DNA of 64,000 nt from positions 1,344,001 through 1,408,000 of the forward strand of contig CAVXKA010000002.1 of assembly GCA_963762255.1 (NCBI GenBank), read 5' to 3'. The notes beneath the pieces are model-generated. The model was not told the origin of the DNA, did no database searches, and was given only the letters and a program-made list of their open reading frames with translations. Below are positions 29,202 through 49,217 of this stretch, piece by piece; position 1 is the stretch's first letter, and every line of letters starts with the position of its first letter. A program made the translations under genes and the position numbers. The stretch is from Candidatus Eiseniibacteriota bacterium (GTDB taxonomy: Bacteria; Eisenbacteria; RBG-16-71-46; JABDJR01).

Positions 29202-30415
29202 GCCCAATCCCTCACAAGCTTCCGGTTGCCTATGTACAGCTCGTTGGGCGCGTTCGGATCGAGCGCCCACTTCATCCGCTCGACACCCTCGGTGACATCC
29301 TTGATCGAGCCGCAGTAGCTCATCCGCAGGTAGCCTTCCATGCCGAACTCGACGCCGGGAACCGTGACCACGAGCACCTTGTTGAGGAGGAACTCCGAGA
29401 GCTTGGTCGAGTTCTTGTTGTAGTGGCTGAAGTCGGCGAAGAGGTAGAACGTGCCGTCGGGCTTGGTCACCCGCACGCCGTCGAACGCCTCCAGGCGCGA
29501 CATCAGCACGTTGCGGTTGTTCTCCAGGGTGACCCGCAGGCTCTCCACCGAGGACTGGAGGCCGGCCAGGGCCGCCGCCGCCGCGTGCTGGAGGAGCGCG
29601 GAGGGGCCCGAGGTCTGGTGGCTCTGGATGTTAGTCATCGCCTCGATGAGTTTCTTGTTGGCCACCGCCCAGCCGATCCGGAACCCGGTCATGGCGTATT
29701 GCTTGGACACGCCGTTGATGATGATGAGCTTCGAGTTCTCCGTCTTGTCCTTGGCGAAGCTCCAGCAGTTGATGGGCCGCCGGCCGTCGAAGATCAGCCG
29801 GTGGTAGATGTCGTCCATGATGAGGTAGAGGTCGCGCCGCTCGCAGAAGTCGACGATGTCGGCGATGAACTCGGCCGAGTACATGGCCCCCGAGGGGTTG
29901 TTGGGGCTGTTGATGATCACGACCCTGGTGTACGAGCCGACCTTCTCCTCGATGTCGCGGATCGTGGGATAGAAGGTTCCGTCCTCCGGGTAGACCGGCA
30001 CGCCGATCGCGCCGCAGAGCTTGGCCATCTCGGGATAGCTCACCCAGTAGGGCGCCGGGTAGATCATCTCTTCCTGCGGGTTGAGGATGGCCTGCAGGGC
30101 GACCATGATGGACTGCTTGGCCCCGCCCGAGGCCATGACGTTCCACGGCGTCACCGGGCGGTCGTAGAATTCCTCTGTGTAGCGGATGATCGCCTGCTTG
30201 AGCGCGGGAGTGCCGTCGGCGGGCGTGTAGCGGACCTCGCCCGAGTTCAGCATCGCCGCCGCGGCGACCAGCGCGTCCATGGGAGGTTTGCTCTTCGGTT
30301 CGCCCCCCCCGAGATGAATGACCGGTTCCCCCTTGGCCCGCAAAATGGCCGCTTTCTCGTTCAGCTTGAGGGTGACCGATTCCCCGATGCTCCTGCCGAT
30401 CAGACTGAGGCTCAT
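29198..30415 (-). CDS. Class I/II PLP-dependent aminotransferase (aspartate aminotransferase-like)
   Basis: GGAKQ, PYWVSY, NSPNNPSG, DDIY and SKQYAMTGFRIG (PLP lysine) motifs. Confidence 0.9.
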   Translation of the reverse strand: MSLSLIGRSIGESVTLKLNEKAAILRAKGEPVIHLGGGEPKSKPPMDALVAAAAMLNSGEVRYTPADGTPALKQAIIRYTEEFYDRPVTPWNVMASGGAKQSIMVALQAILNPQEEMIYPAPYWVSYPEMAKLCGAIGVPVYPEDGTFYPTIRDIEEKVGSYTRVVIINSPNNPSGAMYSAEFIADIVDFCERRDLYLIMDDIYHRLIFDGRRPINCWSFAKDKTENSKLIIINGVSKQYAMTGFRIGWAVANKKLIEAMTNIQSHQTSGPSALLQHAAAAALAGLQSSVESLRVTLENNRNVLMSRLEAFDGVRVTKPDGTFYLFADFSHYNKNSTKLSEFLLNKVLVVTVPGVEFGMEGYLRMSYCGSIKDVTEGVERMKWALDPNAPNELYIGNRKLVRDWA

Positions 30416-30556
30416 GGCTTGCATTCCCCGCCGCTTCCAGGACCCAAAGCTACGCACACGCACGCCGACAGAGGACATCTAGGGTACCCGGCGACCCGAG
30501 GAACGTCAACACCGCCACCCGCCAAAATGGCTCACCACGTCCCCGAAAAGAAGCCG

Positions 30557-31828: not shown

Positions 31829-32266
31829 TCACCTCCGCCGGAAACTCCAGAGCTTGTTGGCGACGAAGTTGATCGGCGTCACGGCGGCAATCGCGACGAG
31901 TTGGCTCGGATTGGGCCCGAAGTGGAACCGCTGCAGGCAGATCGAGAAGACGATCAGGTTGGCGGCGTAGGCAAGCAAGCTCACCGTGAAGAACTTGGGT
32001 AGCTCGCGACGCACCGCCCCGCTGGAGCGGAACGTCCATCGACGATTCAGCGTGTAGTTTGTGAGGACGGAGACCACAAAGCCGAGGGCGTTGGCGGCGT
32101 ACTTGGCTTCGAGCCCGGTGTGCCCGTGGAGAGAGTTCCACGCGAGGAGCGTCAGGTTGAACACGGCCAGGTTCACCAGAACGCCGCTCGCGCCCACCAG
32201 TCCGAACTTCACGAACTCGCGCAGACCCCGACTTCGCTCCGGCCAAGGCCCCGCTTGTTGCGTCAC
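31829..32266 (-). CDS. GtrA-family flippase-like membrane protein
   Basis: FVKFGLVG.SG..VN, NYTLNRRWTF and NFVANKLWSF motifs; four TMs; GTG start. Confidence 0.88.
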   Translation of the reverse strand: MTQQAGPWPERSRGLREFVKFGLVGASGVLVNLAVFNLTLLAWNSLHGHTGLEAKYAANALGFVVSVLTNYTLNRRWTFRSSGAVRRELPKFFTVSLLAYAANLIVFSICLQRFHFGPNPSQLVAIAAVTPINFVANKLWSFRRR

Positions 32267-32898
32267 GCGATCATCCCCCCCGGTGGCCGACTGCAGTCGC
32301 CGGAGGGGATGATACGCGAACTCCGCCCGAGCGGTCCTACGCGCTGAGGATCGCCTCAGCCTCCTTCTTGTCCACGTCCAGGATGTACTCGATCCCGGAG
32401 ATCCGCGCCGCGTCCTGGGTGAGGGCGGCAAGGTCCCCGCGGTCGATGTACTGGCACGCGAACTTACGGCTCCCCGCCATGAGCTGGCGCAGCCCCTGGG
32501 CCAACCGCTCGTAGTACGTGTACAGGCCGATGGCGCCGGTCGGCAACCGCTCGAACTCCGCGTCGCCCAGTTCACGACGCAGCTCGGCGGCGGTGACGAA
32601 GATCTCGTCCTTGGTGGTCCCGAAGCGCTCTACGTAGACCGGGATCACCCCCTGGTCGATGGTCCGGCCGATCGTCTTGCCCACCATGACCGCGGCGATG
32701 GGGCCACGAGCCATGCCGACCAGCTTCACGAACGGCGCCCCCATGGCGAGACCCTTGAAGATCTGATCCTCGAAGGTGAACCCCCCCGCCACCGCCAGCG
32801 GCGGAACGTACTGCTTGCGGTCGGCGAGCTGCTTGGCGTAGCCGTAGAGGAGCGAGTGCAGCTCGACCGGCGGCACCCCCCACTCGTTCATCATCCGC
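32202..32898. repeat. Direct repeat copy 1 (~697 bp): gtrA 5' end, spacer and 3' end of the glutamate-synthase-family gene
   Basis: Near-identical to 35543-36240 at an offset of 3342 bp over the coding part. Confidence 0.95.
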
Positions 32899-32942
32899 CC
32901 ATGCCCACCACGTTCTCGCCGATGGTCAGACCCGTGCCGGCG
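32337..32942 (-). pseudogene. Truncated, internally deleted duplicate of the FMN-binding glutamate synthase family gene
   Basis: 32337-32898 matches 35679-36240 with 4 substitutions; 32899-32942 matches 36794-36837; the intervening 553 bp and the 5' end are absent. Confidence 0.9.
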
Positions 32943-32968
32943 GCAGTCTCTCTCTTGAAGGTCCTCGC

Positions 32969-32997
32969 TTGACATGGTGGAGTTGACGGCGTATACA
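32969..32997 (+). promoter_or_regulatory. Putative sigma70 promoter of the glycosyltransferase pair
   Basis: TTGACA-N17-TATACA. Confidence 0.45.
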
Positions 32998-33058
32998 TAC
33001 ATCATGTATTCAGTTCTAGGTCGCCTCTGACGGATTGATCCTGCGCACGGCCTATACT

Positions 33059-34318
33059 ATGAGATGCCTTCTTCATCACGGCGTTCGGCACACAGTGTTT
33101 GCGACCTTCAAGAATCGCCCTTACTTGGCTCTTCTAGTCGCCGGGTTGGCAATTCATTTGCTGTCTATCCCCCTACTCCGACTCGACCCGCTGGGGGGCG
33201 ACGCTGCCCAGTTCAACAATGAAGCCAACAACATTCTCGACGGCGTGGGGTGGATAAACACCGAAGGCCCGGGACAAGCAACGATGACCTATCCGGCCCA
33301 GGTCGTGTTTCTCCTTGTATGCAAGACCCTCTTCGGCAGAGACGCCTACGTCTTTCCGGTGATCTTACAACACCTCTTCGTGCTCCTCACGGGCTTGACG
33401 GTGTATCGACTCGCGCTGGGCGCGCGGATGCCCAAGACCGTCGCGCTCTTGGCCGAGGGGGTCGTCGTTTTCTTTCCTCACATGTTGTATTGGGCGAACG
33501 TGCTCATCTCACACACTTTGGGAATGTTCCTGAGCGTACTCGGCGTCTTCCTGCTGATGAAGAGGCCAACGCGGATCTTGGCGTATGCGGGGATTGGTCT
33601 CGTGTGGGGAGCGGCGACGATGGCCCGGTTTTCTTACCAATACTTCGTTCCGCTGTGGATAGCCACGATGATCGTCGGCGAGCTTCTCGTCAGAAAGCGG
33701 TTGTCTCGGAACAACCTGCTGAGAAGTGCGCTTCTACTGGTCGGATTTCTCGTCGTGCTCACCCCATGGAACTACAGAGTGCACAAGTACGAGGGAGGAA
33801 CGTCCGGGTACACCGAAGCCTGGCGAATCTGCTATTCCTTCAACCGGCCGCCGGGTCTCCGCGGCGACATACAGGATGATTTCCAGATCTCTCTGATGAA
33901 GGACAGCACGCTGACGCGTGCTGACAGGGAGGCGATCTACAGGGAGAAAGTGCTTCAGAACCTCCGAGAGCATCCCAAGTGGTTCATCAACAACTGGCTC
34001 AGCAATCTCAGTTGGCTCCTGGTCAATGTGTCTACGCAGGGGCGGCCTCACTATGCGGTCTACGCGGCCATTTATTACAGCATGCTTCTCACGCTGGCGC
34101 TCGCCGGGCTGCTATCGCTTACTAGGTCTCAGCACGCTCACTTCCTGCCGGCATATGTTTTCGCCGTGGAGCTGTTTGCTGTGCACGTCCCGATCTACGG
34201 CTACCTTGCTAATTCGTTTCCCGTGTGGGCGCTCTTCGCGCCGATCGTCGCCACAGGGGCGACTATTTCTTTCCGCGCCGCTTCGGAGCAAAGAAGAGGC
34301 TTGAATGGAGTCGATTGA
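33059..34318 (+). CDS. GT-C fold integral membrane glycosyltransferase
   Basis: Multi-TM protein; DAAQF...A.NIL.G.G first loop, YP and PWNYR motifs; AT-richer codons; start uncertain (33035, 33059 or 33095). Confidence 0.7.
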   Translation: MRCLLHHGVRHTVFATFKNRPYLALLVAGLAIHLLSIPLLRLDPLGGDAAQFNNEANNILDGVGWINTEGPGQATMTYPAQVVFLLVCKTLFGRDAYVFPVILQHLFVLLTGLTVYRLALGARMPKTVALLAEGVVVFFPHMLYWANVLISHTLGMFLSVLGVFLLMKRPTRILAYAGIGLVWGAATMARFSYQYFVPLWIATMIVGELLVRKRLSRNNLLRSALLLVGFLVVLTPWNYRVHKYEGGTSGYTEAWRICYSFNRPPGLRGDIQDDFQISLMKDSTLTRADREAIYREKVLQNLREHPKWFINNWLSNLSWLLVNVSTQGRPHYAVYAAIYYSMLLTLALAGLLSLTRSQHAHFLPAYVFAVELFAVHVPIYGYLANSFPVWALFAPIVATGATISFRAASEQRRGLNGVD

Positions 34319-35294
34319 CCACGCCCGGTCACGCATCGCCGTGGTGATTCCCTGCTACCGCGTGAAGGACAAAGTCCTGGGAGTCATCGAGGCGATCGGC
34401 CCCGAGATCGACTCCATCATTTGCGTTGACGACGCCTGTCCGGAGGAGTCCGGGGCTTTCATCAGCGAACAAACCACCGATCCGAGAGTGATTGTCCTTC
34501 AACATGAGAAGAACCAGGGCGTCGGCGGAGCGACCCTCACCGGCTACGCCTACGCCCTTTCGCTAGACATGGAGATCGTCGTCAAAGTCGACGGCGACGG
34601 CCAGATGGACCCCGCACTGGTTCCCTTTTTCGTGGATCCGATCGTCAGAGGGGAAGCCGACTACACCAAGGGCAACCGCTTCACTCGCCCGGAGGATCTC
34701 GAAGGGATGCCCCGGATCCGGCTGTTGGGCAATTCCCTCCTTTCGTTCATGGCGAAGCTCTCGACGGGATACTGGAGGCACCTGGATCCGACAAACGGCT
34801 ACACGGCCGTGCACGCGTCGATACTGAGCAGGCTCCCGCTCAACCGACTGAGCAAGAGCTACTTCTTCGAAACGGACATGCTGTTCCAGTTGCGGATCAT
34901 CGATGCGTGTGTTTGGGACATCCCCATGGCCGCCCGTTATGCGGACGAGAAGAGCAGTCTGAAATGGTTCAAAGTGGCTCCTCTTTTCCTGAGAAGACAC
35001 ATACGAAACTGTCTGGTCAGGATCTTCTACCTCTATGTCTTGCGCGATTTCAACCTGGCGACGCTGCAGTTGGTGACGGGAGTCCCGTTGCTCCTCTTCG
35101 GAGTGATCTTTGGACTGGTGAGGTGGCACCAAAGCAGCGCGACCGGCTTGGCCGCCTCGGCCGGGTCGGTCATGCTCGCCGCCTTGCCCGTGTTGGTGGG
35201 CATACAGCTGATATTGAGCTTCCTCAGCTACGATATGAGCAGCGCACCGACACATCCGATCAGCAGGTTGGTTCCAAGGAACTCGCCGAAGTAG
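34305..35294 (+). CDS. GT2 polyprenol-phosphate glycosyltransferase (DPM1/GtrB-like) with two C-terminal TMs
   Basis: VVIPCY, VDDAC, NQGVGGA, VKVDGDGQMDP, KGNRF, DPTNGY and FFETDML motifs. Confidence 0.9.
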   Translation: MESIDHARSRIAVVIPCYRVKDKVLGVIEAIGPEIDSIICVDDACPEESGAFISEQTTDPRVIVLQHEKNQGVGGATLTGYAYALSLDMEIVVKVDGDGQMDPALVPFFVDPIVRGEADYTKGNRFTRPEDLEGMPRIRLLGNSLLSFMAKLSTGYWRHLDPTNGYTAVHASILSRLPLNRLSKSYFFETDMLFQLRIIDACVWDIPMAARYADEKSSLKWFKVAPLFLRRHIRNCLVRIFYLYVLRDFNLATLQLVTGVPLLLFGVIFGLVRWHQSSATGLAASAGSVMLAALPVLVGIQLILSFLSYDMSSAPTHPISRLVPRNSPK

Positions 35295-35542
35295 CAGCTT
35301 CGGCGCGCCATGGGCAGGGCGGCCTGGTTGGCGAGCCGGCGCGCAGCTCGGTCCGCGCAGCGCCCCCGGCCGTCCGCCCAGGGGCCTCCGAATTGCGAGA
35401 CGGCATCGAGGGGACCCCGCGAGGAGGATCCGGTCGCCCTGCTCCATGATGCGACAGGCGCCAGGGATGGATGATCCAACGCACGGTTGTAGGTATGGAG
35501 CGTGGGCGCCTCCGACAGATCCGTGGCGAGGATGAGGTCAGC

Positions 35543-36240
35543 CCGAACATCACGAACTCGCGCAGGCTCCGACTCCGCTCCGGCCGAACGCCCTGCCTGT
35601 TGCGTCACGCGATCATCCCCCCCGGTGGCCGACTGCAGTCGCCGGAGGGGATGATACGCGAACTCCGCCCGAGCGGTCCTACGCGCTGAGGATCGCCTCA
35701 GCCTCCTTCTTGTCCACGTCCAGGATGTACTCGATCCCGGAGATCCGCGCCGCGTCCTGGGTGAGGGCGGCAAGGTCCCCGCGGTCGATGTACTGGCACG
35801 CGAACTTCCGGCTCCCCGCCATGAGCTGGCGCAGCCCCTGGGCCAACCGCTCGTAGTACGTGTACAGGCCGATAGCGCCGGTCGGCAACCGCTCGAACTC
35901 CGCGTCGCCCAGTTCACGACGCAGATCGGCGGCGGTGACGAAGATCTCGTCCTTGGTGGTCCCGAAGCGCTCTACGTAGACCGGGATCACCCCCTGGTCG
36001 ATGGTCCGGCCGATCGTCTTGCCCACCATGACCGCGGCGATGGGGCCGCGAGCCATGCCGACCAGCTTCACGAACGGCGCCCCCATGGCGAGACCCTTGA
36101 AGATCTGATCCTCGAAGGTGAACCCCCCCGCCACCGCCAGCGGCGGAACGTACTGCTTGCGGTCGGCGAGCTGCTTGGCGTAGCCGTAGAGGAGCGAGTG
36201 CAGCTCGACCGGCGGCACCCCCCACTCGTTCATCATCCGC
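35543..36240. repeat. Direct repeat copy 2 (~698 bp), with a decayed gtrA 5' remnant at ~35543-35608
   Basis: Matches 32202-32898; the remnant reads ...SLREFVMFGL versus GLREFVKFGL in the intact gene and carries a 1-nt indel. Confidence 0.95.
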
Positions 36241-37262
36241 CACGGGCTCATCCCGGTGCCGCCGCCGGCGCCGTCCACCGTGAGCAGGTCGATCTTGTAC
36301 TTGGAGGACCACTTGATGGCGCGGGCCAGGTCCGCGGGCCGGTACGCGCCGGTCTTCAAGAACACGTACTTGGCGCCGGCCTTGCGCAGCTCCGCAACCC
36401 GGGTGGCGAATCCCTCTTCGTCCACCATCCCGACGCGCGAGTGACGCTCGAACTCGGTGAACGCGCCGTGCTCGTAGGCCTGGATCACGTGCGGATCGGT
36501 CGGGTTGGGGAGCACGATGTAGCCGCGCTTGTGGAGGAGTTGGGCCTTGGCGAGATCCCGGATCTTCACCTCGCCCCCGATGTCCTTCGCCCCCTGGCCC
36601 CACTTCAGCTCCACCACCTCGACGCCGAGCTTCTCGATGGCGTACTCCTGCGCGCCGAGCCGCGTGTCCTCGACGTTGGCCTGCACCACGATCGCACCGT
36701 ACCCGTCGCGCTGGTTCTCCTTGTACAGCCGGACGCGGTTCTTGAGATCCACCGTGTCGACAACGCGACCGTCCTTGATCTTCGCCTCCGGGTCCATGCC
36801 CACCACGTTCTCGCCGATGGTCAGACCCGTGCCGGCGAGGGCGGAGCCGATGGCGATGCCGTCCCAGTTGTTCTTGGCCACGTTGGTGGAGCCGATCCCG
36901 GGGATGATCCACGGGAGGCGGAACTTGATGCCCCGGTCGTGGCCGATCACGACCTCCAGGTTGACCTTCGGGAAGATCGCCTTGTCGGAATCCGCTGGAA
37001 TTCCGTGGGCGCCGACGGCGGTGCCCATGATGTTGAAGTGGGAGTAGTCGACCGGATAGTCCTTCTCCGCCGCGGTCGTGATCACACCGAACGGCTGCGG
37101 GTAGATGACCTCGTGGCCGCGGTACGCGGACTTGCCGATCTCGCACATGCCGACGCAGCCGTCCACGCAAGTCACGCACATCCCCGAGGCGGGGACGATC
37201 GACGCTTCGGTGCGGTTCTTGGTGAGGGTTGCCGCCGATGAGTTGGTTCTGGACAGGGACAT
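35679..37262 (-). CDS. FMN-binding glutamate synthase family protein (stand-alone FMN domain)
   Basis: ELKWGQGAKDIGGE, FLKTG, TVDGAGGGTGMSP, AVAGG and VGMAR motifs; N-terminal CxxCxxxCxxxC; GGAGG RBS. Confidence 0.88.
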   Translation of the reverse strand: MSLSRTNSSAATLTKNRTEASIVPASGMCVTCVDGCVGMCEIGKSAYRGHEVIYPQPFGVITTAAEKDYPVDYSHFNIMGTAVGAHGIPADSDKAIFPKVNLEVVIGHDRGIKFRLPWIIPGIGSTNVAKNNWDGIAIGSALAGTGLTIGENVVGMDPEAKIKDGRVVDTVDLKNRVRLYKENQRDGYGAIVVQANVEDTRLGAQEYAIEKLGVEVVELKWGQGAKDIGGEVKIRDLAKAQLLHKRGYIVLPNPTDPHVIQAYEHGAFTEFERHSRVGMVDEEGFATRVAELRKAGAKYVFLKTGAYRPADLARAIKWSSKYKIDLLTVDGAGGGTGMSPWRMMNEWGVPPVELHSLLYGYAKQLADRKQYVPPLAVAGGFTFEDQIFKGLAMGAPFVKLVGMARGPIAAVMVGKTIGRTIDQGVIPVYVERFGTTKDEIFVTAADLRRELGDAEFERLPTGAIGLYTYYERLAQGLRQLMAGSRKFACQYIDRGDLAALTQDAARISGIEYILDVDKKEAEAILSA

Positions 37263-37272
37263 GGTGTCCTCC

Positions 37273-37947
37273 TTAGCGCTTTGTCTCGCAGGCCACGCAG
37301 GGTTTCATATAGCACATCATGTCGTCGAACTGCTCCTTCTCGAGGCAGGGCGGCGACAGGTTGGCGCAACCGCCACAGATCGCTTTGTCGGGTTCGCTGT
37401 AGGTGCAGCGCAATTGACAGGCGGGGCAGACGTAGATGCAGGCGCCGCACTGGCGGCACACCTCCGAGTGCTTATCGAACGGAGTGCCGACCCGTCGGTG
37501 CTCGCCGCGACCGGCGAAACCGATGGCCCCCGCCGCCATCTGCTCCGAGCACATGCGCACGCAGAGCCCGCACAGGATGCAGTCGTCGTGCTCCTGGCGG
37601 AAGCGCTGCTGGCGGACATTGTGCTCGGACGCCAGATCCTGGATCACCTTTGACTGGGGACAGGAAGCCAGCAGCAGCTCGAGGATCATCTTGCGCGCCT
37701 GCACCACCCGAGCCGACGCGGTGCGCACCTTCAAGCCCTCCTCGACCGGGTAGGTGCAGGAGGTGACCAGCTTCGACTTGGGACCCTCGCCGATTTCCAC
37801 CACGCAGAGCCGGCAGGCGCCGTACGGCGTGAGCCCCTCCATGTGGCAGAGCGTGGGGATCGGGAAGCCCAGGAACTGGGCCGCCTCGAGCACGGTGGTG
37901 CCGCGCTCGACCGTGGTTTCCAGCCCGTTCACGGTGATCTTCATCAT
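37273..37947 (-). CDS. NuoG-N/HoxU-like iron-sulfur subunit
   Basis: IPTLC, GACRLCVVE and TSC ([2Fe-2S]); CILCGLCVRMC and CRQCGACIYVCP (2x[4Fe-4S]); extra C-terminal Cys cluster; ATGA overlap with the upstream gene. Confidence 0.88.
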   Translation of the reverse strand: MMKITVNGLETTVERGTTVLEAAQFLGFPIPTLCHMEGLTPYGACRLCVVEIGEGPKSKLVTSCTYPVEEGLKVRTASARVVQARKMILELLLASCPQSKVIQDLASEHNVRQQRFRQEHDDCILCGLCVRMCSEQMAAGAIGFAGRGEHRRVGTPFDKHSEVCRQCGACIYVCPACQLRCTYSEPDKAICGGCANLSPPCLEKEQFDDMMCYMKPCVACETKR

Positions 37948-40900
37948 TTCCGCTCCCCCTTGCCGGCGCCGATCAGCTCCGGTTGCTCGCGCGTGCGCTC
38001 GGTGAAGGTGAGATCGCAGCGCAGGCAGCGCCGCGCCTCGCGGGCGGCTTCGTGAACCGAGAGCACCTTCTCCACTTCGTCGAAGTTGCGCCGGCGCGCC
38101 TGGGTAGAGAGCCGCGGCGTCTCGACACGGTCGCCGTCGGCCGGCTCGCCCGTGACCGGCGTCGCCGGCTCCACGTAGACATCGGGCAGGCGCACCCCCG
38201 AGGGCTGCTTGAGCGGCTCGCCCCGCAGGTGGCGTTCGATCATCACCGCCGCCCGTTTGCCGGCGGCGATGGCGTCGACCACCGTGTTGGGTCCGGTCAC
38301 GACGTCTCCGCCCGCGAAGACCCCCGGCCTGTTGGTGAGCAGCGTCTCGCGGTCCACCTGGACCGTGCCCTGGCGCGTGGTTTCGATCCGATTGGCGCCG
38401 GCCACCGAGATGCAGTCGGTGTCCGAGCCCTCGCTGATCGCCACGATCAGGGTGTCGAGGGGTACGGTGCGCTCGCTGCCCGCCACCGGAACCGGCGCAC
38501 GACGGCCGCCGGCGTCGATCTCGCCCAACCGATTCGTGATGCACTCGATGCCGGTGAGGCGCCCGCCCTGCGTGAGGATGCGCACCGGCGCGGTGAGGGC
38601 CTCGATGCGCACCCCCTCCTCCTGAGCGGCCTCGATCTCCTCCGCGAACGCGGGCATCTCGTTCATGCTGCGGCGGTAGTAGATCGTCACCTCGGTGACG
38701 TCCTTCTGACGGAGCGCCATGCGCGCCGCGTCCACCGCCGAGTTCCCGCCTCCGACCACACCCACGCGCCCGCGCGCCAGTTCCTCGCCCCCCATGTTGA
38801 ACGCCTTGAGGAAGCGGATGGATGGAAGGACGCCCTGTGCGTCTTCGTTGGGCAGACCGAGCGCGAGACTCTTGTGAGCGCCGAGCGCGATGAAGACCGC
38901 CTGGAACCCGGAGGTGAACAGATCGTCCAGGGTCACGTCGCGTCCGAGCGTGGTGTTGCACTTGACGGTGATGTTCTCGTCCAGGATCGAGGCGATTTCC
39001 TTCCGCACCACCTCGCGCGGAAGCCGGTAGCCGGGGATAGCGCTGAAGAGCATGCCGCCGGGCTCCGGATCGGACTCGAACACCGTCACCTTGTGACCGC
39101 TCAGCGAGAGATAGTGCGCGGCGGAGAGCCCCGCTGGGCCGGCCCCCACCACGGCCACTCGCGGCGACTTCTCGTCGGCCTTCACCCGCCGCACGGGCTT
39201 GTAGGTCATGGGATCGCTGCGGTCGGTGATGAATCGCTTGAGCGCTCGGATGGCCACCGGATGCGCGCCCGAGAGCCCCGCTCGGCAGTGCTCCTCGCAG
39301 GGATGATTGCAGACGCGCGCGCATACCGAAGGGAACGGATTCGCCTCGCGGATCGTCTGGTAGGCCAGGTCGTACTCGCCGCGGGCGATGTGCGCGACGT
39401 AGCGCCAGGCCTCGGTCCCGATAGGGCAGGCGGCCTGGCAGGGCGCGCCCACCAACTCGTTGCACACGAGCGCATCGCACCGCTTGGCGATGATGTGTCG
39501 CTCGTACTCCTCGCGGAAGTAGCGCAGTGTGGAGAGCACCGGGTTAGCGGCGGTCTGTCCGAGGCCGCACATCGTGGTGTCCTTCACCACCTGGGCCAAC
39601 TCCTCGAGCAGATCGAGTTGGTCCAGCGAGCCGCGGCCGCTCGTGATGTCGTCCAGAATCTCCCACATCCGCTGCGTGCCCTTGCGGCAGGTGAAGCACT
39701 TGCCGCACGACTCGTCCTTGAGGAAGTTCATGAAGTACTTGGCGACGTCGACCATGCAGGTGTTCTGGTCCATCACGATCATGCCGCCCGAGCCCATGAT
39801 GGAGCCGGCCTCGGCGAGGCTGTCGTAACCGACGCGCAGGTCGAATCGCGCGGCGGGGATGCAACCCCCCGAGGGCCCGCCGGTCTGGACCGCCTTGACG
39901 CGTCCGCCGCCCGGGGGACCTTCGCCGATGCCGTTGACGATCTCGGCCAGCGTGACCCCCATCGGCACCTCGACCAGACCGGTGTTCTTCACCTTGCCCA
40001 CCAGGCTGAAGATCTTGGTGCCGGAATTGTTCGTGGAGCCGGTGCGTGCGAACGCGGCGCCCCCATCCGCGAGCACCAGCGGCACGTTGGCCCAGGTCTC
40101 GACGTTGTTGATCGCGGTGGGCTTGCCGTCGATGCCGCGCTGCACCGGGAACGGGGGCCGCTGACGCGGCTCGCCCATCTTCCCCTCGATGGAGCGGATG
40201 AGCGCGGTTTCCTCGCCGCACACGAACGCGCCCGCTCCCCTCACGAGTTGAATATCGAAGCTGAAGCCGGTGCCGAGGATGTCCTTGCCCAGAAGCCCCA
40301 GATCGCGCGCCTGGCGGAGCGCGATGACGAGGTGCTTGATCGCGAGCGGGTACTCGTTGCGGACGTAGATCACGCCCTCGGTGGCGCCGGTGGCGAACGC
40401 GCCGATCAGCATCCCCTCGATGATGGCGTGGGGATTGCCCTCCAGCACGGCGCGATCCATGTAGGCACCGGGGTCACCTTCATCGGCGTTGCAGACCAGG
40501 ATCTTGCCTTTGCCGTTGGGGGCCTCGGCGAGCATCTCCCACTTGCGCCCGGTCGGGAATCCCGCCCCGCCTCGCCCGCGCAGCCCGGAGGTCTTGATCT
40601 CCCCGAGAACCCATTCGCGATCGCCTCCCTCGAGCGCGTCGATCAGCGGGCCATACCCCCCCGACCTGATCGTGCTGGCGATGCGGATCGGATCCACCTG
40701 CTCGCTGCGGGAAAGGATCGTGCGCGTCTGGCGCTGGAAGAAGGGGAGTTCCTCCTGGCGCCGCACCGGCTCGCCGGTCTGAGGATGGCGAGGCAGCAGT
40801 GCCTCGATCACTTCGCCGGCCGCCACCGCGGCGACGATGGCCGCCATGTCTCCGATGCGCACTTTGGGGTAGAACGTGCGATGCGGCTCGATCAGCACCG

Positions 40901-41129
40901 ACGGTTCCATCTCGCAGAAGCCGTGGCAGCCGGTGATGCGCAGTCGGACGTGATCGGTCAGCCCCTTGGCGAGCATCTCCCGCTTCGTCACGCGGATCAG
41001 ATCGTTGGCCCCGCTCGCCTGACCGCAGGTGCCGGCGGAGATCACGATCACCGGCTGCTTGGGGTCGATCGCTTGCCGCAGCCGCTGGCGGAAGGCCTTG
41101 AATTCGTTGACGGATCCCAGTCTCTCCAT
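37944..41129 (-). CDS. NuoF/HydB-like flavoprotein fused to a GltD/NfnB-like FAD oxidoreductase
   Basis: GLRGRGGAGFP, NADEGDPGAYMDR, GAFVCGEETAL and ESCGKCFTCR...CGLG, then PCQAACP, CARVCNHPCE, VGAGPAG, VGGGNSAVD, YRRS, GGD and EARRCLRC. Confidence 0.92.
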   Translation of the reverse strand: MERLGSVNEFKAFRQRLRQAIDPKQPVIVISAGTCGQASGANDLIRVTKREMLAKGLTDHVRLRITGCHGFCEMEPSVLIEPHRTFYPKVRIGDMAAIVAAVAAGEVIEALLPRHPQTGEPVRRQEELPFFQRQTRTILSRSEQVDPIRIASTIRSGGYGPLIDALEGGDREWVLGEIKTSGLRGRGGAGFPTGRKWEMLAEAPNGKGKILVCNADEGDPGAYMDRAVLEGNPHAIIEGMLIGAFATGATEGVIYVRNEYPLAIKHLVIALRQARDLGLLGKDILGTGFSFDIQLVRGAGAFVCGEETALIRSIEGKMGEPRQRPPFPVQRGIDGKPTAINNVETWANVPLVLADGGAAFARTGSTNNSGTKIFSLVGKVKNTGLVEVPMGVTLAEIVNGIGEGPPGGGRVKAVQTGGPSGGCIPAARFDLRVGYDSLAEAGSIMGSGGMIVMDQNTCMVDVAKYFMNFLKDESCGKCFTCRKGTQRMWEILDDITSGRGSLDQLDLLEELAQVVKDTTMCGLGQTAANPVLSTLRYFREEYERHIIAKRCDALVCNELVGAPCQAACPIGTEAWRYVAHIARGEYDLAYQTIREANPFPSVCARVCNHPCEEHCRAGLSGAHPVAIRALKRFITDRSDPMTYKPVRRVKADEKSPRVAVVGAGPAGLSAAHYLSLSGHKVTVFESDPEPGGMLFSAIPGYRLPREVVRKEIASILDENITVKCNTTLGRDVTLDDLFTSGFQAVFIALGAHKSLALGLPNEDAQGVLPSIRFLKAFNMGGEELARGRVGVVGGGNSAVDAARMALRQKDVTEVTIYYRRSMNEMPAFAEEIEAAQEEGVRIEALTAPVRILTQGGRLTGIECITNRLGEIDAGGRRAPVPVAGSERTVPLDTLIVAISEGSDTDCISVAGANRIETTRQGTVQVDRETLLTNRPGVFAGGDVVTGPNTVVDAIAAGKRAAVMIERHLRGEPLKQPSGVRLPDVYVEPATPVTGEPADGDRVETPRLSTQARRRNFDEVEKVLSVHEAAREARRCLRCDLTFTERTREQPELIGAGKGERK

Positions 41130-41190
41130 GAGCGTGTGCTCCCCGTCCCTCACCGCCGGTACCGGAGCCGGCGGCGAAGGTTCATGGTCG

Positions 41191-42033
41191 TCATGCGTTG
41201 ATACCGGTCAGGTCGAGCATGTGGCCGCGGCAGCCTCGCCGCGAACAGATCTGAACGACGCCCCCACCCCGCACGATCATCGGAACCGTGGGCGCTCCGC
41301 AGTCGCCGCAGTCGCCGGCGCCGGTGAGGTGCGCGTTGCAGTGCGGGCAGAAGAAATCGACGACGGAGTCGGGCGGTATCTCGTGCTCCGATCGGATGGT
41401 GTAGGAACCGTAGAGGGCGGACAGGAGCAGCGCTCCGTGCTTCTCCCCGAAGGAAATCGTCACCCGGATGGACGGGTGCTCGTCGATGAGTTGGGCCGCG
41501 TCCATCAGGTTGTGATTGCAGCGCGCGCAGCTCACCTCGACCGGGAAGATGCGGGCGTCGGTCTTCACGTCGACTCGGTCGAGCCCTCCCCTGGTCTGAT
41601 CGAGGATCCCCGCCACCGCTCCGGGGGTGACGTTGGAGAAGTAGTGGCCGTCGACCACGACGATCGGGCCCAGAGCGCACCCGCCCAGACAGTTCTGGGT
41701 CTCGTAGGTGATCTCGCGGTCCTCGGTGGTCTCGCCGACCGGCACATCGAGCTGCCGCCGCAGCTCCTCGTCGATGCGCGGCGCGCCGCGAACGTGGCAG
41801 GCGGTGCCCATGCAGCACGTGAGCAGATGCTTGCCGCGCGGCTTCAGGCTGAACCAGCGGTAGAAGGTCGCCACGCCGTAGATATCCACGAGGGATCGCC
41901 CGGTCTTTTCGGAGACCGCGCGCAGCGACTCCTCGGGAAGGTAGGAGTACTTGCCCTGGATCTCCTCCAGAATGGCGATCAGTTCGCCCCGTTCGCCACG
42001 ATGCCGGTCGATGATGGTGTCGATCTCGCTCAT
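41191..42033 (-). CDS. NuoE/HydC-like [2Fe-2S] subunit with a Cys-rich C-terminal extension
   Basis: GVATFY, CMGTACHVRG and CLGGCALGP motifs; extension with CARC, CPHC, CGDC and CSRRGC; own GAGG RBS. Confidence 0.88.
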   Translation of the reverse strand: MSEIDTIIDRHRGERGELIAILEEIQGKYSYLPEESLRAVSEKTGRSLVDIYGVATFYRWFSLKPRGKHLLTCCMGTACHVRGAPRIDEELRRQLDVPVGETTEDREITYETQNCLGGCALGPIVVVDGHYFSNVTPGAVAGILDQTRGGLDRVDVKTDARIFPVEVSCARCNHNLMDAAQLIDEHPSIRVTISFGEKHGALLLSALYGSYTIRSEHEIPPDSVVDFFCPHCNAHLTGAGDCGDCGAPTVPMIVRGGGVVQICSRRGCRGHMLDLTGINA

Positions 42034-42089
42034 GGTCCATGCCTCGCAGGTGGTGACTCTTGGGCCGGGATCGGAGCCGCTGCGTTCGC

Positions 42090-42261
42090 TCCAAGCGTAG
42101 GAGGCGCAATGCCAGACTCCCCCCTCGGGCCGGGGGAGGATGCAGCTTCGGCTCTTCTCGCACGAGCCGCACAGGTCTTGGTGCGGGAGGGTGCCCCCGC
42201 TCCGATCTGAGCGGGGACCGCCGGGCAGGGCAGCCTCGCGCGTGTCGTCGTCGCCGGCCAT
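42090..42261 (-). CDS. Small Cys-rich protein (or an N-terminal domain fused in frame to NuoE)
   Basis: ATG 42261 with an AGGAG RBS; LCGSC...SC.LPRPEGGVWHC..Y motif; no stop before nuoE as sequenced. Confidence 0.5.
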
Positions 42262-42380: not shown

Positions 42381-42395
42381 GCAAGGCCCATGCCA
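42381..42395 (-). promoter_or_regulatory. Sigma54 (-24/-12) promoter of the oxidoreductase/glutamate-synthase operon
   Basis: TGGCATGGGCCTTGC on the minus strand fits TGGCAY-N5-TTGC with exact GG-N10-GC spacing. Confidence 0.8.
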
Positions 42396-42586: not shown

Positions 42587-43930
42587 CTAGTTCTTCTGGG
42601 GGACCCTGGGCCGAAGCCTCTCGCGAAGCGTCTTGCGGTCGATCCCCAGGATGCGCGCCGCCTGCGATCGGTTGCCGCCGACGCTCTGGAGGACGGCGCG
42701 GATGTGCTGGACCTCCACCTCGGCCAGGGTGCGCTCGGAGCCGCCACCCCTCAGCGCCGAGTAGCGCATCAGCGAGGGAAGATCGGAGACGTCGACCGTT
42801 TCCCCCTCGGCCATCACCACCAGGCTCTGAATGACGTTCTCCAGCTCACGGACATTGCCCGGCCAGGTGTACTCGCGCAGCGCCCGCAAGGCCTCCGGCG
42901 AGAAGACCGGCGCGGGCCGCCCCGATTCATCGGCGAACTTCTTCGCGAAATGGTTCACGAGAACGAGAACGTCGTCGCCGCGCTCGCGCAAGGGCGGGAT
43001 CGTGATCGAGATCACGTTGAGGCGATAGTAAAGATCCTCGCGCAGCACGTCCTTCTCGACGAGGCTGAGCGGATCGCGATTGGTGGATGCGACGATGCGC
43101 ACGTCCACCTTGCGGCTGCGCGTCGTGCCGACCATGCAGATTTGCTTGTCCTGCAGGACACGCAGCAGCTTGACCTGCATGGCGGGGGACGTCTCGCTGA
43201 TCTCGTCGAGGAAGATCGTGCCGCCGTCGGCGGTCTGGAAGAAGCCGGCCCGCGATTCGGAGGCGCCGGTGAACGCGCCCTTGACGTATCCGAACAGCTC
43301 GCTCTCGAGCAATCCCTCCGGGATCGCTCCGCAGTTGACAGCCACGAACGGAGCGGAGGAGCGCGGCCCCGAGTAGTGGATGGCGCGCGCGATCAGTTCC
43401 TTGCCCGTGCCGCTCTCCCCCGCGATGAACACGGTGGCGGAGCTTGCCGCGGCCTTGGCGACGGCCCGCAACACCGGTCGCATCACTTCGGACTCGCCGA
43501 GAAGCCCGTGGAGCGGGCGGGGGCCGACCACCGAGCGCGGCCGCGCGGCCTGGCGAAGCCGCTGCCGCTCCAGGGCCTCGTCCACCGCGGCCAGCAGCTC
43601 GGCATCGCCGCAGGGCCGCATGAGGTACTCGGCGGCGCCGGACTTGATCGCGGCCACCGCCGCCTTGACCGTTCCCTCGGCGGCAATCATGACGACTTCG
43701 ACGTCGGTGTGGTTCTCGCGGACGTGCCGCACGAGAGCCATCTCCTCCGTTGCGGACCCCGCGCTCTCCACGACCACGATATCGATCGGCGTGGACTCCA
43801 GAAGGCGGAGCGCTTCGTCGATGCCCTTCGCGGTGAACACCGTGTGGCCTCTCCCGGCCAGCGCACGCTCCAGCCTCTCGAGCGCAGGACCTGCGCCGGC
43901 AACGGCTAGCATGCGGGGACTTTCAGTCAC
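42587..43930 (-). CDS. Sigma54-dependent enhancer-binding protein (NtrC-like) with a degenerate receiver domain
   Basis: GESGTGKE, ESELFG..KGAFTGA, FLDEI, QVKLLRVLQ, DLYYRLNV, WPGNVREL and a Fis-type HTH; start uncertain (43912, 43930 or 43984). Confidence 0.92.
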   Translation of the reverse strand: MTESPRMLAVAGAGPALERLERALAGRGHTVFTAKGIDEALRLLESTPIDIVVVESAGSATEEMALVRHVRENHTDVEVVMIAAEGTVKAAVAAIKSGAAEYLMRPCGDAELLAAVDEALERQRLRQAARPRSVVGPRPLHGLLGESEVMRPVLRAVAKAAASSATVFIAGESGTGKELIARAIHYSGPRSSAPFVAVNCGAIPEGLLESELFGYVKGAFTGASESRAGFFQTADGGTIFLDEISETSPAMQVKLLRVLQDKQICMVGTTRSRKVDVRIVASTNRDPLSLVEKDVLREDLYYRLNVISITIPPLRERGDDVLVLVNHFAKKFADESGRPAPVFSPEALRALREYTWPGNVRELENVIQSLVVMAEGETVDVSDLPSLMRYSALRGGGSERTLAEVEVQHIRAVLQSVGGNRSQAARILGIDRKTLRERLRPRVPQKN

Positions 43931-44067: not shown

Positions 44068-45528
44068 CTAGCCGAGTCTCTCTCTGTCGAAGAAGTCCCG
44101 AAGCTGCTCCCAGGTCTGTTCGATCCTGTCGCCCTCGAACTCGATGAACTGCAGGCCGGCGAGGTTGCTGATCTCCCCCAGCCCCTTCTGCTTGAGCAGC
44201 GCCACCCGCTGGAAGCCGAGCTTTCCTTGGAAGAGGCCGGCCTCGTGGATGACGTTCTCTCTCGCCCGCAGTTCCCCGTCGCTGGTCTTGTCCTCCGCGG
44301 TGAGGACCAGGATGGCGAACTCCGCCTGCTCGAGCATGTCCTCCAGCACCGGGACGATGGCGTCGCCGACCCGGGACTGCGTCTCGTACTCGACCGTCTC
44401 CAAGTTGAGTTTCTTCTCGACGAATCGCGCCACCTGCGCCCACAGCGGGCTGCGCCCATGGCCGATGAACACCCGCCCCGAGGTCGAAGGGGTCTTGATC
44501 CAGCGCCGGAAGGCTTCACCTGAAGGTTGGAGTATGCCGTGGTGAATGGTCAGCAGGCCCAGATCCAGCAGGCGCGCCTCTCCAGGGTTCAGGTTCTGGC
44601 CCGCGGGGGAGTGTCGCCCCGAAGCGGCACGCAGGAGGCATTTCCGCTCCTGTACGTTCAGATTACGCCAGTAGGACCGATAGAGACCCTGCAGACCGCT
44701 GTTCCACCCGAGCAACTCCTCGATCACTTCCCCAAAGCACGTCTCCGTCGAGGTCCCCGTTCTCCGCGTCCGAATCCAGGCGTCGGCGGTGACCTGGAGA
44801 AAATAGGGCATGTCCCCGCCGATGCGTCGAATCGCATCCACCTCTTCTGCAGTCAAGTCGATCCCCACGCTCTTCGCCGGACCGGTGATCAGAGTCTCCG
44901 CTTCCGCGGTGGGCATCGGACCCAACACGATTGGGCTGGGGAGAAAGACATTGCAGAACTCGGAGACGTAGATCGGCTCCTCGGCACGGCAGAGCTCAAA
45001 GAGCGGGCGGAAGGAGGATGTCACCCAGGTCACCAACTCACTCGTCACCAGGGCGCGCAGGCCTCCGAAAAAGTCGAGATCGAATCGGTCGTGGCGAACC
45101 AGGGTCTCGAACTCGTCCAGCAGGATCACCAACCGACGGCCGTCGGCGACGGACTTGACCCATCTTTCGAATCCCACGTAATCCTCAATGGCGATATCGT
45201 CCGGTGGCGGGGCCTCGGGAATCACCTTCGTGACCGCGTTCGTCACAGCCTGACGGAACCGGATCGGGTCGATGACGTCGGCGAGAAGATCCACGTAGGC
45301 CACTGCCACTGGAGGATATCCGGCCCGAATGTCAGGCCGAGGAGCGCCCGAACCCGACATGAGCTGAAGGAAAGATGTCTTGCCCGCACGCCGCGCCCCG
45401 AGCACCTGCATCGAATCGGGGTACTTTCGAGAGATCCTCCTCAGGAAGAACGCTATCTGTTCCTGGCGCCCGTAGAAGTGGTCTGCATCGACTGGACGAC
45501 CCGCCACGTAGGGACTACCGGCGCTCAC
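44068..45528 (-). CDS. STAND-type P-loop ATPase fused to a C-terminal Cap12/Pycsar-type TIR domain
   Basis: SPY..G.PV...FYGR, Walker A GARRAGKTS, Walker B ILLDEFE and GDMPYFLQ; TIR motifs VFIGHG, FAILVLTAED, ARENVIHEAGLF.GKLG and SNLAG. Confidence 0.85.
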   Translation of the reverse strand: MSAGSPYVAGRPVDADHFYGRQEQIAFFLRRISRKYPDSMQVLGARRAGKTSFLQLMSGSGAPRPDIRAGYPPVAVAYVDLLADVIDPIRFRQAVTNAVTKVIPEAPPPDDIAIEDYVGFERWVKSVADGRRLVILLDEFETLVRHDRFDLDFFGGLRALVTSELVTWVTSSFRPLFELCRAEEPIYVSEFCNVFLPSPIVLGPMPTAEAETLITGPAKSVGIDLTAEEVDAIRRIGGDMPYFLQVTADAWIRTRRTGTSTETCFGEVIEELLGWNSGLQGLYRSYWRNLNVQERKCLLRAASGRHSPAGQNLNPGEARLLDLGLLTIHHGILQPSGEAFRRWIKTPSTSGRVFIGHGRSPLWAQVARFVEKKLNLETVEYETQSRVGDAIVPVLEDMLEQAEFAILVLTAEDKTSDGELRARENVIHEAGLFQGKLGFQRVALLKQKGLGEISNLAGLQFIEFEGDRIEQTWEQLRDFFDRERLG

Positions 45529-45534
45529 CGTGCG

Positions 45535-48500
45535 CTACCTCAGATCCTGATATCGCAGGATCCACAGACGCATCAGATCCACGGCAAACCTGTACTTCTT
45601 GAGTCCATCCCCGCCCTGCCGATCCGCCGTGATCAGGTGATGCAGAGCCAGACGATGCAGCGCCTTCACCCTCTGCTCTTCGCTGACTTCCTTCGTCACC
45701 GGCACCAGGATCTCGGATCCCGGAATCCAACGGTTCTGGGTCGCCCCGATCCGGGCCATAGTCCTCAGAACAAGGTGGGCGTCTTGCCCGACGTCCGTCC
45801 ACATTCGGTCCAATACCGCTCCGCCCCCGAATTCTAAGAACGTCCCACCGACTTCTCGAGATACTCGGGCCCGATCCAATACCCACACTTCTGGCTGTTC
45901 ATCTCCTCAACGCAGTAATCGCACAGTTGCTGAATCAGGTACGGGTGCCCTCCGGTCAGGCTGAGAATCCTATCGACCACCGCATCGTCATAGGTCACGC
46001 CCAGTACCTGGACCGGGGTCCGGATCAGGTCGTTTGCCTCCTTGGGCTCCAGGAACCCCACTTCTCGGTGATGTGCTACATTGAACAACTCGACCTTGTA
46101 CTTGAGGTCCATCTCCTCCAGTTCGCGGTGGCCGGCAAGAATGAAGGCCACCCCCTGATCCTCCTGCATGAGCGCCCGCAAGTAATAGAAGATATCCGCC
46201 TCATACTTCTTGTTCTTGACTCGCTCATGCAGACACTCAAACTCATCCAACATGATCAGGACGAGGCCCTTTCCTCTTCCTCCCATGGCATGAACCGCAC
46301 TCTCCAGAGTTCTATCAAACGCCGCCCTTGGTCCCTTCGTGAACTCCTCTGCAGGCGGCACCGTGCAAGAGAGTCCCCGTCCCCCGAGCGCCTTGTCAAC
46401 TTCTTCAGCCATTCTTGACATGAGCGCAGCCGTCGAATCGCCCAGAAGTTGCAGATCGAGAAACACCGGATAGACGGGAAACTGACGCCCCTCTCGAATG
46501 CGTTTCCCCAGCTGGCCGCTTTGCAATTGCCTGAGCACGGAGGTCTTACCAGTGTGCGATCCACCATGAAGTACGAGAGCCCCGCGTCCGGTCTTGCTGA
46601 ACAGTTTCGCCTCGATCCACTCGAAGATCTCTTCCCGCCCGTAGAAGAGGGGACTGTCTGCGGGGAGCGGTTTCGTGGTGATATAGGGACTGTCCACCTC
46701 CAGATAGACGCGGACCGCTTCATCAATCAGCTTGGACCAATCACCGAAGACACGGGTCAACATGGTCCGCTCGAGGAGGCTCAGGTCGGAGAGTTGATCC
46801 TCGGGGATCTTGAGGAGGTTGAGACATTCTCTCAGTTCGATGCGTCGGCTCGGATCGCGATCGTACTCGGCGAGGCGATCGCTGACTCGTTGCGCGACAG
46901 TCGTGTAACGCTCCCCTAGCTCACGGAGGAAGAACTCTCGCGCGGTGACTCGACTGATCACGGGCCCGGACCGCTGCAGAGCGGTTTGGATATCGCCAAG
47001 CCGGGATGACTTGAGCGCCACGGTGAGCGCACTCAGAAGATCCTTGCTGGGCCCATGGAGGTCACTGACAAGCTGATCGAGTACCCCCAGTTGGAATGCG
47101 GGATGGAGCAACCCGGCGTAAGTCCGCACGATGCGCGCTTTCACGGAGTCCTCGCGATCCACGATGGCGGCAGCACTGTCCAAGCTGTTTACGCCTTCCT
47201 CGTGGTCCTTCAGGAACCCATGCACGACTTCCACAACGGCGTCGTTGTTCGGGCTGGCGAGAACGTGGTCCGCAAGATTTCCCGACTCTACGAGGCGGGC
47301 GTTCTGTATGGAGATGGCGGCGCTGTTCGCGATCAACTCGAACGCCAACTCCTCCTGGCCGTTGAAATACGCGAATTCCTTGTCGGCGCCCTTCCCCTTG
47401 GTCTTCGTCTCCACCTTGAGCACGCCGACAAGTTCTTTCTGCTTTCCCTTCCCTCCCGCCAAGAGCGGGATTCCCATGAACGACTGGCACTTCCTCCCCT
47501 TGGCGAAGTTGTGTCTGTCAAAGGTTCCTCGGTGATGGGGATGGAGCGTCAGGTCGAGGTTACTTCTGGCGGTGAATTTCTCGCGTTTGACGGCAATCCA
47601 GACCGTCAGGCCGACCTTCTGGTCCTCCGTCACCGGCCGGTCGACGATGTCCTTGTCCGCCACCAGTTGGTACCGGCGCACTCTTGGGCCTCGAGTGGCC
47701 CATCCATAGGCCGCCCAGTGCGGCTGCACAAGCTCGTTCCCCTGTTTCAGGAAAAGCGCGCAGGCTTCGGCGTGGAACAGTTTGGCTGTGTCATGCACGA
47801 CCTCCTTGACAAGCTTCTGGACATCCAGCTTGCCACTCAGCATGTCTCGGATCGGTTCCATTGCTTTGTGGATGACCACATAGCGCTTGGCGTACTGCGT
47901 CTGCAAACGCTCGCTCGCCAGCGCGATTTCGTGGGCCAGAAGGTCCAGGCGCCTTTGCTGGACATCGCTGAAATCGCGGTCGTCTACAGTGCCTCGTACG
48001 AACACGTTCTCGACCTTCAACACCCCCGTGATGACTCCGCCGATCTGGAGGGGTACACCCAACCACGCGCCGCATTCCTGTTGCTTCTCGTAGTTGGATG
48101 AGTCGTAGAAGCCCTTGTGGTGGCAGTGTTCTTTGAGTTCATCCATGTTTCGAGCACGGAATTGTCTGCCGGTCGCGGCGACCCAGGCCGTGAGTCCGAC
48201 TCTCTCGTCATGGCTCAGGTGCACGCGCTTACAGTCCGCGGGAGAGCATGACCTGGTCCCCAGACAGTGTGCGACCTTCTCAGGTCCCGGCACCTCGTAG
48301 GAGCGGACCACCTTTCGCAGGACCTGCGATCCCCATCCCGCGCGTTGAGTCAGCGTCTTCTTGCTCTCGTCGATGAGGAAGATCGCTCCGGAATCCGCCT
48401 GGGTGGCACTGGCCGCGACGCGCACAACGATGTCCAGGAAGGCATCCAACTCTCCCTCGGTGGCAACCGCTTCCTCGATGACTTCTCGGGCCCACAGTGT

Positions 48501-49178: not shown

Positions 49179-49217
49179 GCGGCCTCCCATGCGAAGTGCA
49201 AGCCGGAGTGCTGCCGG

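Follow-up and report, generated by a model that had tools for sequence, protein, structure and literature searches.

A four-gene operon of uncultured bacteria joins a Bfu-type electron module to a glutamate synthase-like FMN subunit: a candidate enzyme for ammonium assimilation

Introduction

A four-gene operon in a Candidatus Eiseniibacteriota genome (93.6% complete) may encode an iron-sulfur flavoenzyme that makes glutamate without an amidotransferase. We analyzed the operon and its flanks within a 64-kb stretch of this genome, which is designated as the window and to which all positions refer. The genes, all on the minus strand, encode a NuoE-like BfuC, a BfuB fused to a GltD-type domain, a short BfuA that corresponds to the N-terminal part of NuoG, and an FMN-barrel protein related to the synthase domain of glutamate synthase (GltS). 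The operon is real and is conserved across many phyla of uncultured bacteria. On the sequence evidence, the chance that the four products assemble into a single complex for the reductive amination of 2-oxoglutarate with NH4+ is slightly better than even, and the operon would then likely allow cells to make glutamate from free ammonium without ATP.

The operon is widespread and apparently undescribed. If the proposed function is correct, it would constitute a third route of ammonium assimilation, beside glutamate dehydrogenase (GDH) and the glutamine synthetase-glutamate synthase (GS-GOGAT) pathway, in many uncultured lineages, where the annotation "FMN-binding glutamate synthase family protein" has concealed it. 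The Bfu family would also gain a new third substrate.

Results and discussion

Organization and conservation of the operon

Pfam and sequence comparison agreed with the original prediction, a reading of the window's letters alone, on the four subunits: a NuoE-like protein, a NuoF-GltD fusion, a NuoG-N subunit devoid of a catalytic domain and an FMN domain (Table 1). The tight packing that it described was also found: the stop codon of bfuB-GltD and the start codon of bfuA share an ATGA overlap at 37947-37944, and a gap of 10 bp (37272-37263) separates bfuA from the FMN gene. Start sites had to be revised. The first gene had been taken to begin at 42261; the start of bfuC is most likely 42033, because the 76 codons upstream represent a decayed small Cys-rich gene that is a separate open reading frame (ORF) in 35 of 57 relatives. 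The most likely start of bfuB is 41129, 61 bp past the bfuC stop codon.

A scan of GTDB with the FMN protein as the query confirmed at least 597 stretches (597 of 600 candidates), of which the best 80, with 76-85% identity, were studied and are designated as close loci. They belong to Planctomycetota, Zixibacteria, Thermodesulfobacteriota, Myxococcota, Acidobacteriota, Ignavibacteriota and other phyla. In 78 of the 80, the gene immediately before the FMN gene is bfuA, and the other two stop at a contig edge; bfuB is present in 68 and bfuC in 61, each miss being a contig that ends too early. The complete set was found in all 61 close loci with enough upstream DNA, and the co-occurrence of the FMN gene with the electron module, which had been suggested as a check on the prediction, thus holds wherever it can be read. 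The junction between bfuA and the FMN gene is the most conserved in the operon. Within the phylum of the window, the FMN gene is patchy (11 of 201 genomes, including that of the window). In a protein search, every candidate (8000 of 8000) was scored as a homologue. Two bioreactor RNA runs contain contigs that cover the operon of a relative at ~92-94% identity, a kind of record that cannot show transcription or its level. Complex prediction for the FMN subunit with BfuA (score 0.00, mark 0.32) is evidence neither way.

Electron-transfer subunits

The motifs PGAYMDR, GAFVCGEE and GGPSG, which had been reported for the NuoF part of BfuB, were all found. We evaluated this subunit by the bifurcation signatures (A-x-M, Phe and GGPSG) and ligand sites as defined in PMC12018979 and PMC7311640. 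A222, M224 and P419 are present in 64 of 64 relatives and F302 in 63, and the Glu residue that selects NADH is kept in all 64. The ligands of the B1 cluster (C475, C478, C481 and C521) are invariant, and those of the Zn site (B2; C458, H545, C551 and C556) occur in 64 of 64. The B5 site in the N-terminal thioredoxin domain is degenerate: it comprises S31, C35, C68 and C72, that is, three of four Cys, and the first position is Cys in 19 of 64. According to published descriptions, two solved enzymes do not need an Fe-S cluster at B5.

PDB matches assign the core of BfuB to HydB/NfnB/StnB and its C-terminal part to StnC/NfnA. The latter part is a circularly permuted FAD/NADPH domain of the NfnA/StnC type, for which two [4Fe-4S] clusters are predicted; it replaces the ferredoxin domain that carries clusters B3 and B4. 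K631, the Lys ligand of the FAD-proximal cluster, and GGGNSA and YRR of the NADPH motif are present in all 45 fused BfuB sequences, that of the window included. The FAD of this domain type is described in the literature as non-bifurcating.

Among 64 complete BfuB sequences, 45 have the GltD tail, 18 have a two-cluster ferredoxin tail and one is truncated. In a tree of the shared core (IQ-TREE quick search; the sequence of L013, below the length filter, was left out), the two tails are interspersed, with 13 changes, at least seven of which are forced by well-supported branches; one fused and one ferredoxin-tail BfuB are sisters with 100% support. Given this interspersion, the GltD and ferredoxin tails look functionally interchangeable. 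Close BfuB pairs with and without the ferredoxin domain offer a natural test of what the low-potential arm of a Bfu enzyme can be wired to.

Published work shows that B3/B4 bind ferredoxin and are needed for bifurcation: removal of B4 from T. sibiricus NfnABC lowered the activity from 17.2 to 0.76 U/mg, and deletion of B3/B4 from T. kivui HydABC abolished bifurcation. Since the fused form lacks these clusters, ferredoxin bifurcation is unlikely in the window's enzyme, while it is plausible, judging from the domain content, in the 18 ferredoxin-tail relatives. The original prediction had noted that GltD replaces the ferredoxin domain of HydB and had called bifurcation "not assured"; the replacement stands, and the ferredoxin-linked reaction, not supported for this form, fits those relatives.

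BfuA carries motifs for one [2Fe-2S] and two [4Fe-4S] clusters and has neither the A3 His motif nor a catalytic domain; C191, C194, C217 and C220 of its Cys-rich C-terminal extension are invariant in 78 sequences. BfuC consists of a C1 [2Fe-2S] domain, in which C74, C79, C115 and C119 are invariant in 46 sequences, and a C-terminal extension of ~125 residues with eight Cys (C169, C172, C229, C232, C242, C245, C263 and C268) that are invariant in the same number. Fold matches of its model (pLDDT 88.6) cover residues 1-153 only, and for the extension we found no Pfam match, no hit in the fold search and only atlas matches below 0.9.

Two known systems allow a comparison. Type 2 enzymes of the BfuABC (HydABC) type, such as Wor-Bfu (Schut et al. 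2022, PMC9304861; PDB 7T2R, 9MQX), share with the operon BfuC, the signature and Zn residues of BfuB and a short BfuA that has A1, A2 and A4 but lacks the A3 motif; in both, the catalytic subunit is encoded by a gene of its own that comes next. The known third substrates listed there include no glutamate-type partner, and the window's form differs in having GltD in place of B3/B4, a degenerate B5 site and extra Cys-rich tails on BfuC and BfuA. StnABC/Nfn-Bfu (PMC7483475, PMC10482914, PMC11829005, PMC12018979; PDB 8OH5, 9BOV, 9N5U) shares the permuted GltD with its Lys-ligated cluster (K631 here) and the NuoEF-type core. However, GltD of Stn is part of BfuA, on the mid-potential arm, and the BfuB of Stn still has a ferredoxin tail, whereas in the window GltD sits on BfuB at the place of that tail, and BfuA, with 224 residues and no GltD, leads to an extra FMN enzyme.

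FMN subunit

The FMN subunit is modeled as an FMN barrel (pLDDT 91.4), and its PF01645 match exceeds the Pfam cut-off (Table 1). Against a profile of the GltB FMN domain, which we built from domains in the fetched loci, it matched with a probability of 87.6 (E 3.5e-6, 368 columns, 19% identity), and in the fold search no structural alignment was longer than that with GltS (359 residues; Z 21.5; rmsd 3.8). In the profile alignment, GltS motifs are kept in order: GE151, K220-x-x-Q223-G-A-K226, R273 and GGT336G-x-SP. E151 aligns with Glu903 of GltS in the Synechocystis numbering, and K220, Q223, K226, R273 and T336 align with Lys966, Gln969, Lys972, Arg992 and Thr1065. We take these GltS residues to be ligands of FMN and 2-oxoglutarate, and K226, R273 and T336, by their alignment with GltB, to be the Lys, Arg and Thr that bind 2-oxoglutarate. 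E151 and these five residues are each invariant in 45 of 45 close homologues and are the majority residues in distant ones.

The N-terminal Cys cluster that had been noticed in this protein proved to be a conserved four-Cys motif, C29-x2-C32-x3-C36-x3-C40. As had been noted, the operon has no amidotransferase or GXGXG subunit by Pfam; searches for GXGXG and GATase_2 throughout the 93.6%-complete genome also found none, with controls positive in 14 and 13 of 14 reference genomes, respectively. NCBIfam holds no model for the FMN protein, and a search for longer fused forms of it (924-2635 aa) found none, which is weak evidence.

The synthase domain of GltB and ferredoxin-dependent GltS (PF01645; PDB 1EA0, 1OFD, 6S6S; reviewed in PMC8097209) has the same FMN barrel and the same order of GE, K-x-x-Q-G-A-K-x-x-G-G, Arg and GGTG-x-SP, and the operon resembles GltB also in containing a GltD-type NADPH module. 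In contrast to GltB, the FMN subunit lacks the amidotransferase, GXGXG and [3Fe-4S] motifs, has the N-terminal four-Cys motif instead, shares only ~19% identity and is predicted to receive electrons via a Bfu core.

By its sequence, the operon falls outside canonical Bfu, as the fused form has no B3/B4; outside Stn, in which GltD is on another subunit; and outside GltB, whose GATase, GXGXG and [3Fe-4S] it lacks. The main text of the Bfu survey PMC9304861, as available, does not contain the word "glutamate"; relatives of the enzyme described here may be among the 1558 BfuB sequences of its Supplementary Table 1. No such operon appears in the available portions of PMC11406978, PMC6085437, PMC10482914, PMC7483475, PMC5736913, PMC10327494, PMC8097209 and PMC11829005, and our literature search, which most subscription journals lay outside, found no description of it.

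Nitrogen-gene context

The window genome encodes GlnA and two GDH-like proteins. Among the 80 close loci, gdh is present in 10-11 (~0.5 expected), and none matches GltB. A second scan, with a 51%-identical homologue as the query, yielded 80 metagenome loci, some of them near-duplicates, that are designated as distant loci. Their neighbors include glnA (17), gltB (9), nrpR (8), gdhA (8), glnK (5) and amtB (4), with at least one of these six genes in 32. One distant family member, P0270 (800 aa), is fused to an FrhB-type (F420 reductase) domain and is a candidate F420-dependent version by its domain content. Given the nitrogen neighbors, the few Bfu genes and the FrhB fusion among distant homologues, the FMN unit looks like an enzyme of nitrogen metabolism that may be coupled to different electron donors.

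Searches for GXGXG and GDH covered 50 of the 80 close-locus genomes. GXGXG had no match in 31 of these carriers and no strong match in 10 of 10 carriers of the window's phylum. The operon as a simple replacement of GOGAT or GDH is unsupported, since carriers encode a GDH-family enzyme (49 of 50) and some of them GXGXG (a strong match in 13 of 50, of which seven were confirmed as full GltB), and GltB is rare throughout the phylum.

Points against a glutamate synthase function, and alternatives

Several observations weigh against a Bfu-driven glutamate synthase. In the fold search, IDI-2 and hydroxy-acid oxidases stand at the top (Z 24.9). The sequence link to GltS is weak: a profile search with the FMN subunit reached GltS at E=0.16, and a single-sequence search of PDB gave no match. 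In the profile alignment, Glu231 takes the place of Gln978 of GltS and Ala378 that of the FMN-binding Asp in TDGG, and no Cys was found after the barrel at positions aligned with those of the [3Fe-4S] cluster. In known GltS, ammonia reaches the synthase site by a tunnel from the glutaminase site, according to PMC8097209, and the FMN subunit has no such site to feed it. Bfu genes are near only 5-6 of the 80 distant homologues, and the homologue of Peptoclostridium acidaminophilum has neither nitrogen nor Bfu neighbors. The GDH and GXGXG counts of the carriers point the same way, and the absence of GltB here says little because GltB is rare in the phylum with or without the operon (2 of 201 genomes).

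The low identity to GltS, the higher fold scores of hydroxy-acid oxidases and IDI-2, the Gln978-to-Glu replacement and the GDH already present in nearly all carriers would all suit an enzyme with the same wiring that reduces or oxidizes another imine or 2-oxoacid, for example, a different amine in combination with 2-oxoglutarate, the case of N-methylglutamate synthase, or a different amino acid. We give this alternative a modest minority chance: the Lys, Arg and Thr that we take to be 2-oxoglutarate ligands are kept, and the neighbors are generic ammonium-assimilation genes rather than genes for special amines.

BfuABC-GltD could also be a self-contained NADH/NADPH transhydrogenase, with the FMN protein as a co-regulated separate enzyme or a 2-oxoglutarate sensor. 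Fused BfuB does have both an NADH and an NADPH site, and most distant FMN homologues occur without Bfu genes, P0270 being joined to an F420-reductase-type domain instead. Nevertheless, BfuA would lead electrons nowhere without a partner, neither an NADP site nor another gene for a third substrate occurs in the 18 ferredoxin-tail forms, and no junction of the operon is as well conserved as that between bfuA and the FMN gene; the chance of this alternative appears slim. A split, glutamine-dependent GOGAT with its amidotransferase and GXGXG parts encoded elsewhere has a very slight chance. Archaeal-type GOGATs are split into separate subunits, and the window genome is incomplete, yet that genome gave no GXGXG or GATase_2 match, and GXGXG was likewise missing from 31 of the 50 carriers and had no strong match in any of the 10 from the window's phylum.

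The P. acidaminophilum homologue (L176:7533-9521, 40% identical) lies behind a gene for a small FMN-binding protein; as it comes from a cultured anaerobe, it is a possible source for the biochemistry of the stand-alone type.

Proposed function and energetics

Of the predicted glutamate synthase-type, ammonia-using site, the kept GltS active-site residues, the failure to find a GATase partner and the ties with nitrogen genes speak in favor; the part that does not carry over is ferredoxin bifurcation in the fused form. Most simply, the operon would encode a Type 2-like Bfu complex with 2-oxoglutarate plus NH4+ as its third substrate. The four genes would yield one soluble iron-sulfur flavoenzyme with a Bfu-type core as the electron supply; the substrate, direction, association and coupling are inferred. 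Electrons from NADH would enter at the FMN of BfuB, and a second entry would be its swappable tail, for NADPH via the fused GltD here and for ferredoxin via B3/B4 in the 18 relatives. They would then move by way of B1 and the clusters of BfuA and reach the FMN subunit at its N-terminal cluster, a putative stand-in for the [3Fe-4S] cluster of GltS, and the reduced FMN would deliver a hydride to 2-iminoglutarate. The predicted net chemistry is that of NAD(P)-dependent GDH, which, however, has an unrelated fold and uses neither a flavin nor an Fe-S chain nor ferredoxin, as hydride passes directly from NAD(P)H.

With an assumed standard potential, we computed a glutamate couple of ~-260 to -280 mV at 1 mM 2-oxoglutarate, 50 mM glutamate and 1 mM NH4+. 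NADH alone would therefore be near equilibrium, and input from NADPH or ferredoxin would drive synthesis. With the potentials given in PMC9304861 (NADH, -280; NADPH, -380; ferredoxin, -500 mV), the computed drive is ~110-130 mV for NADH plus ferredoxin and ~50-70 mV for NADH plus NADPH. Ferredoxin-tail forms would perform true confurcation, in which NADH and reduced ferredoxin (mean ~-390 mV) drive ATP-free ammonium assimilation. The fused form would use NADPH, either coupled to NADH (mean ~-330 mV) or uncoupled; tight coupling is possible rather than probable.

The same complex might instead serve amino-acid degraders by oxidizing glutamate and reducing NAD+ and NADP+. In principle the reaction can run either way, gdh is a frequent neighbor, and the glutamate couple approaches that of NADH at low NH4+. 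However, glutamate at ~-280 mV cannot drive the coupled reduction of NAD+ and ferredoxin (mean -390 mV), so the ferredoxin-tail forms would not run backwards, and distant homologues cluster with glnA, glnK, amtB and nrpR; the chance of the reverse direction is small. Because coupled glutamate oxidation to NAD+ and ferredoxin is uphill, the synthesis direction is favored.

In its most specific form, the proposal of glutamate synthesis is a confurcating, amidotransferase-free glutamate synthase ("Glu-Bfu") for ATP-free ammonium fixation, which would pool NADH with a low-potential donor through a docking module repeatedly swapped between ferredoxin and NADPH types, and whose fused form in the window would couple two pyridine-nucleotide pools without ferredoxin. 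We regard this complete scheme as doubtful and put it forward tentatively.

Promoter, regulator and upstream Cys-rich gene

A sigma-54 promoter-like site upstream of the operon is the single match in the window (Table 1); since 14 of 100 shuffled sequences also match, it is not significant alone. In 21 of 55 relatives, the strict motif stands no more than 1.2 kb upstream of bfuC, and only 26 plus-strand matches occur in the 1.2 Mb as a whole. Matches to a sigma-54 activator are present in 44 of 80 related loci; in 39, the activator gene shares the strand of the operon and lies immediately upstream. In locus L012 a histidine kinase precedes the activator. The adjacent activator is likely a dedicated regulator of the operon.

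Table 1. Features of the operon and its surroundings in the window
Feature	Positions	Strand	Size and basis
BfuC/NuoE-like subunit	41191..42033	-	280 aa; PF01257
BfuB-GltD fusion	37944..41129	-	1061 aa; Pfam, PDB matches, residue conservation
Short BfuA/NuoG-N subunit	37273..37947	-	224 aa; Pfam
FMN-barrel GltS-synthase-like subunit, predicted catalytic	35679..37262	-	527 aa; PF01645 E=5.9e-12
Sigma-54 activator (receiver, AAA, HTH_8)	42587..43930, start approximate	-	Pfam
Sigma-54 (-24/-12) promoter-like site	42381..42395	-	motif match
Decayed small Cys-rich ORF	42034..42261	-	in-frame read-through into bfuC
Self-complementary hairpin past the last gene (possible terminator)	35612..35655	-	inverted repeat

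The small Cys-rich gene lies between the sigma-54 promoter and bfuC in L020 (4700-5173) and 34 other loci. Where it is a gene of its own (35 of 57 relatives), the product has ~100 residues and two CxxC-x5-C...C-E-E-Y repeats, one of which the window copy keeps. A Pfam search with the protein gave no match; it is possibly a metal-binding accessory subunit.

Neighboring genes

Upstream of the activator, 44068-49190 encodes a STAND NTPase, whose TIR domain is of the CAP12/Pycsar type, and a GAF-STAND protein, where relatives have the histidine kinase of the operon; this is possibly a defense insertion that removed the sensor kinase. At 5666-10333, gdh is followed by a gene for a PPDK_N-domain protein with a nucleotidyltransferase domain, and the pair recurs beside the operon in several relatives. 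The N-terminal ~140 residues of this protein match the sensor kinase of the operon and a regulator adjoining amtB elsewhere in the genome. An aspartate-aminotransferase-like gene and ATP-dependent PEP carboxykinase (27549-30478) lie 5-8 kb downstream of the operon on the same strand, a link of the aminotransferase that is not conserved (1 of 80 loci). The H+-pyrophosphatase gene at 10453-13087 is split over two frames (Pfam positions 2-113 and 115-644), which suggests a frameshift or an assembly error.

The 3' end of the FMN gene has a 98%-identical partial copy at 32198-32942, which comprises stretches of 703 and 44 bp and has an internal deletion. This copy flanks an opposite-strand insert of lower GC content (58%) at 33035-35294, which encodes a family-2 glycosyltransferase and a membrane protein. 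The insert looks recent because the contig of a relative joins 32230 to 35640; a gtrA-like gene is intact after the partial copy and broken after the real FMN gene.

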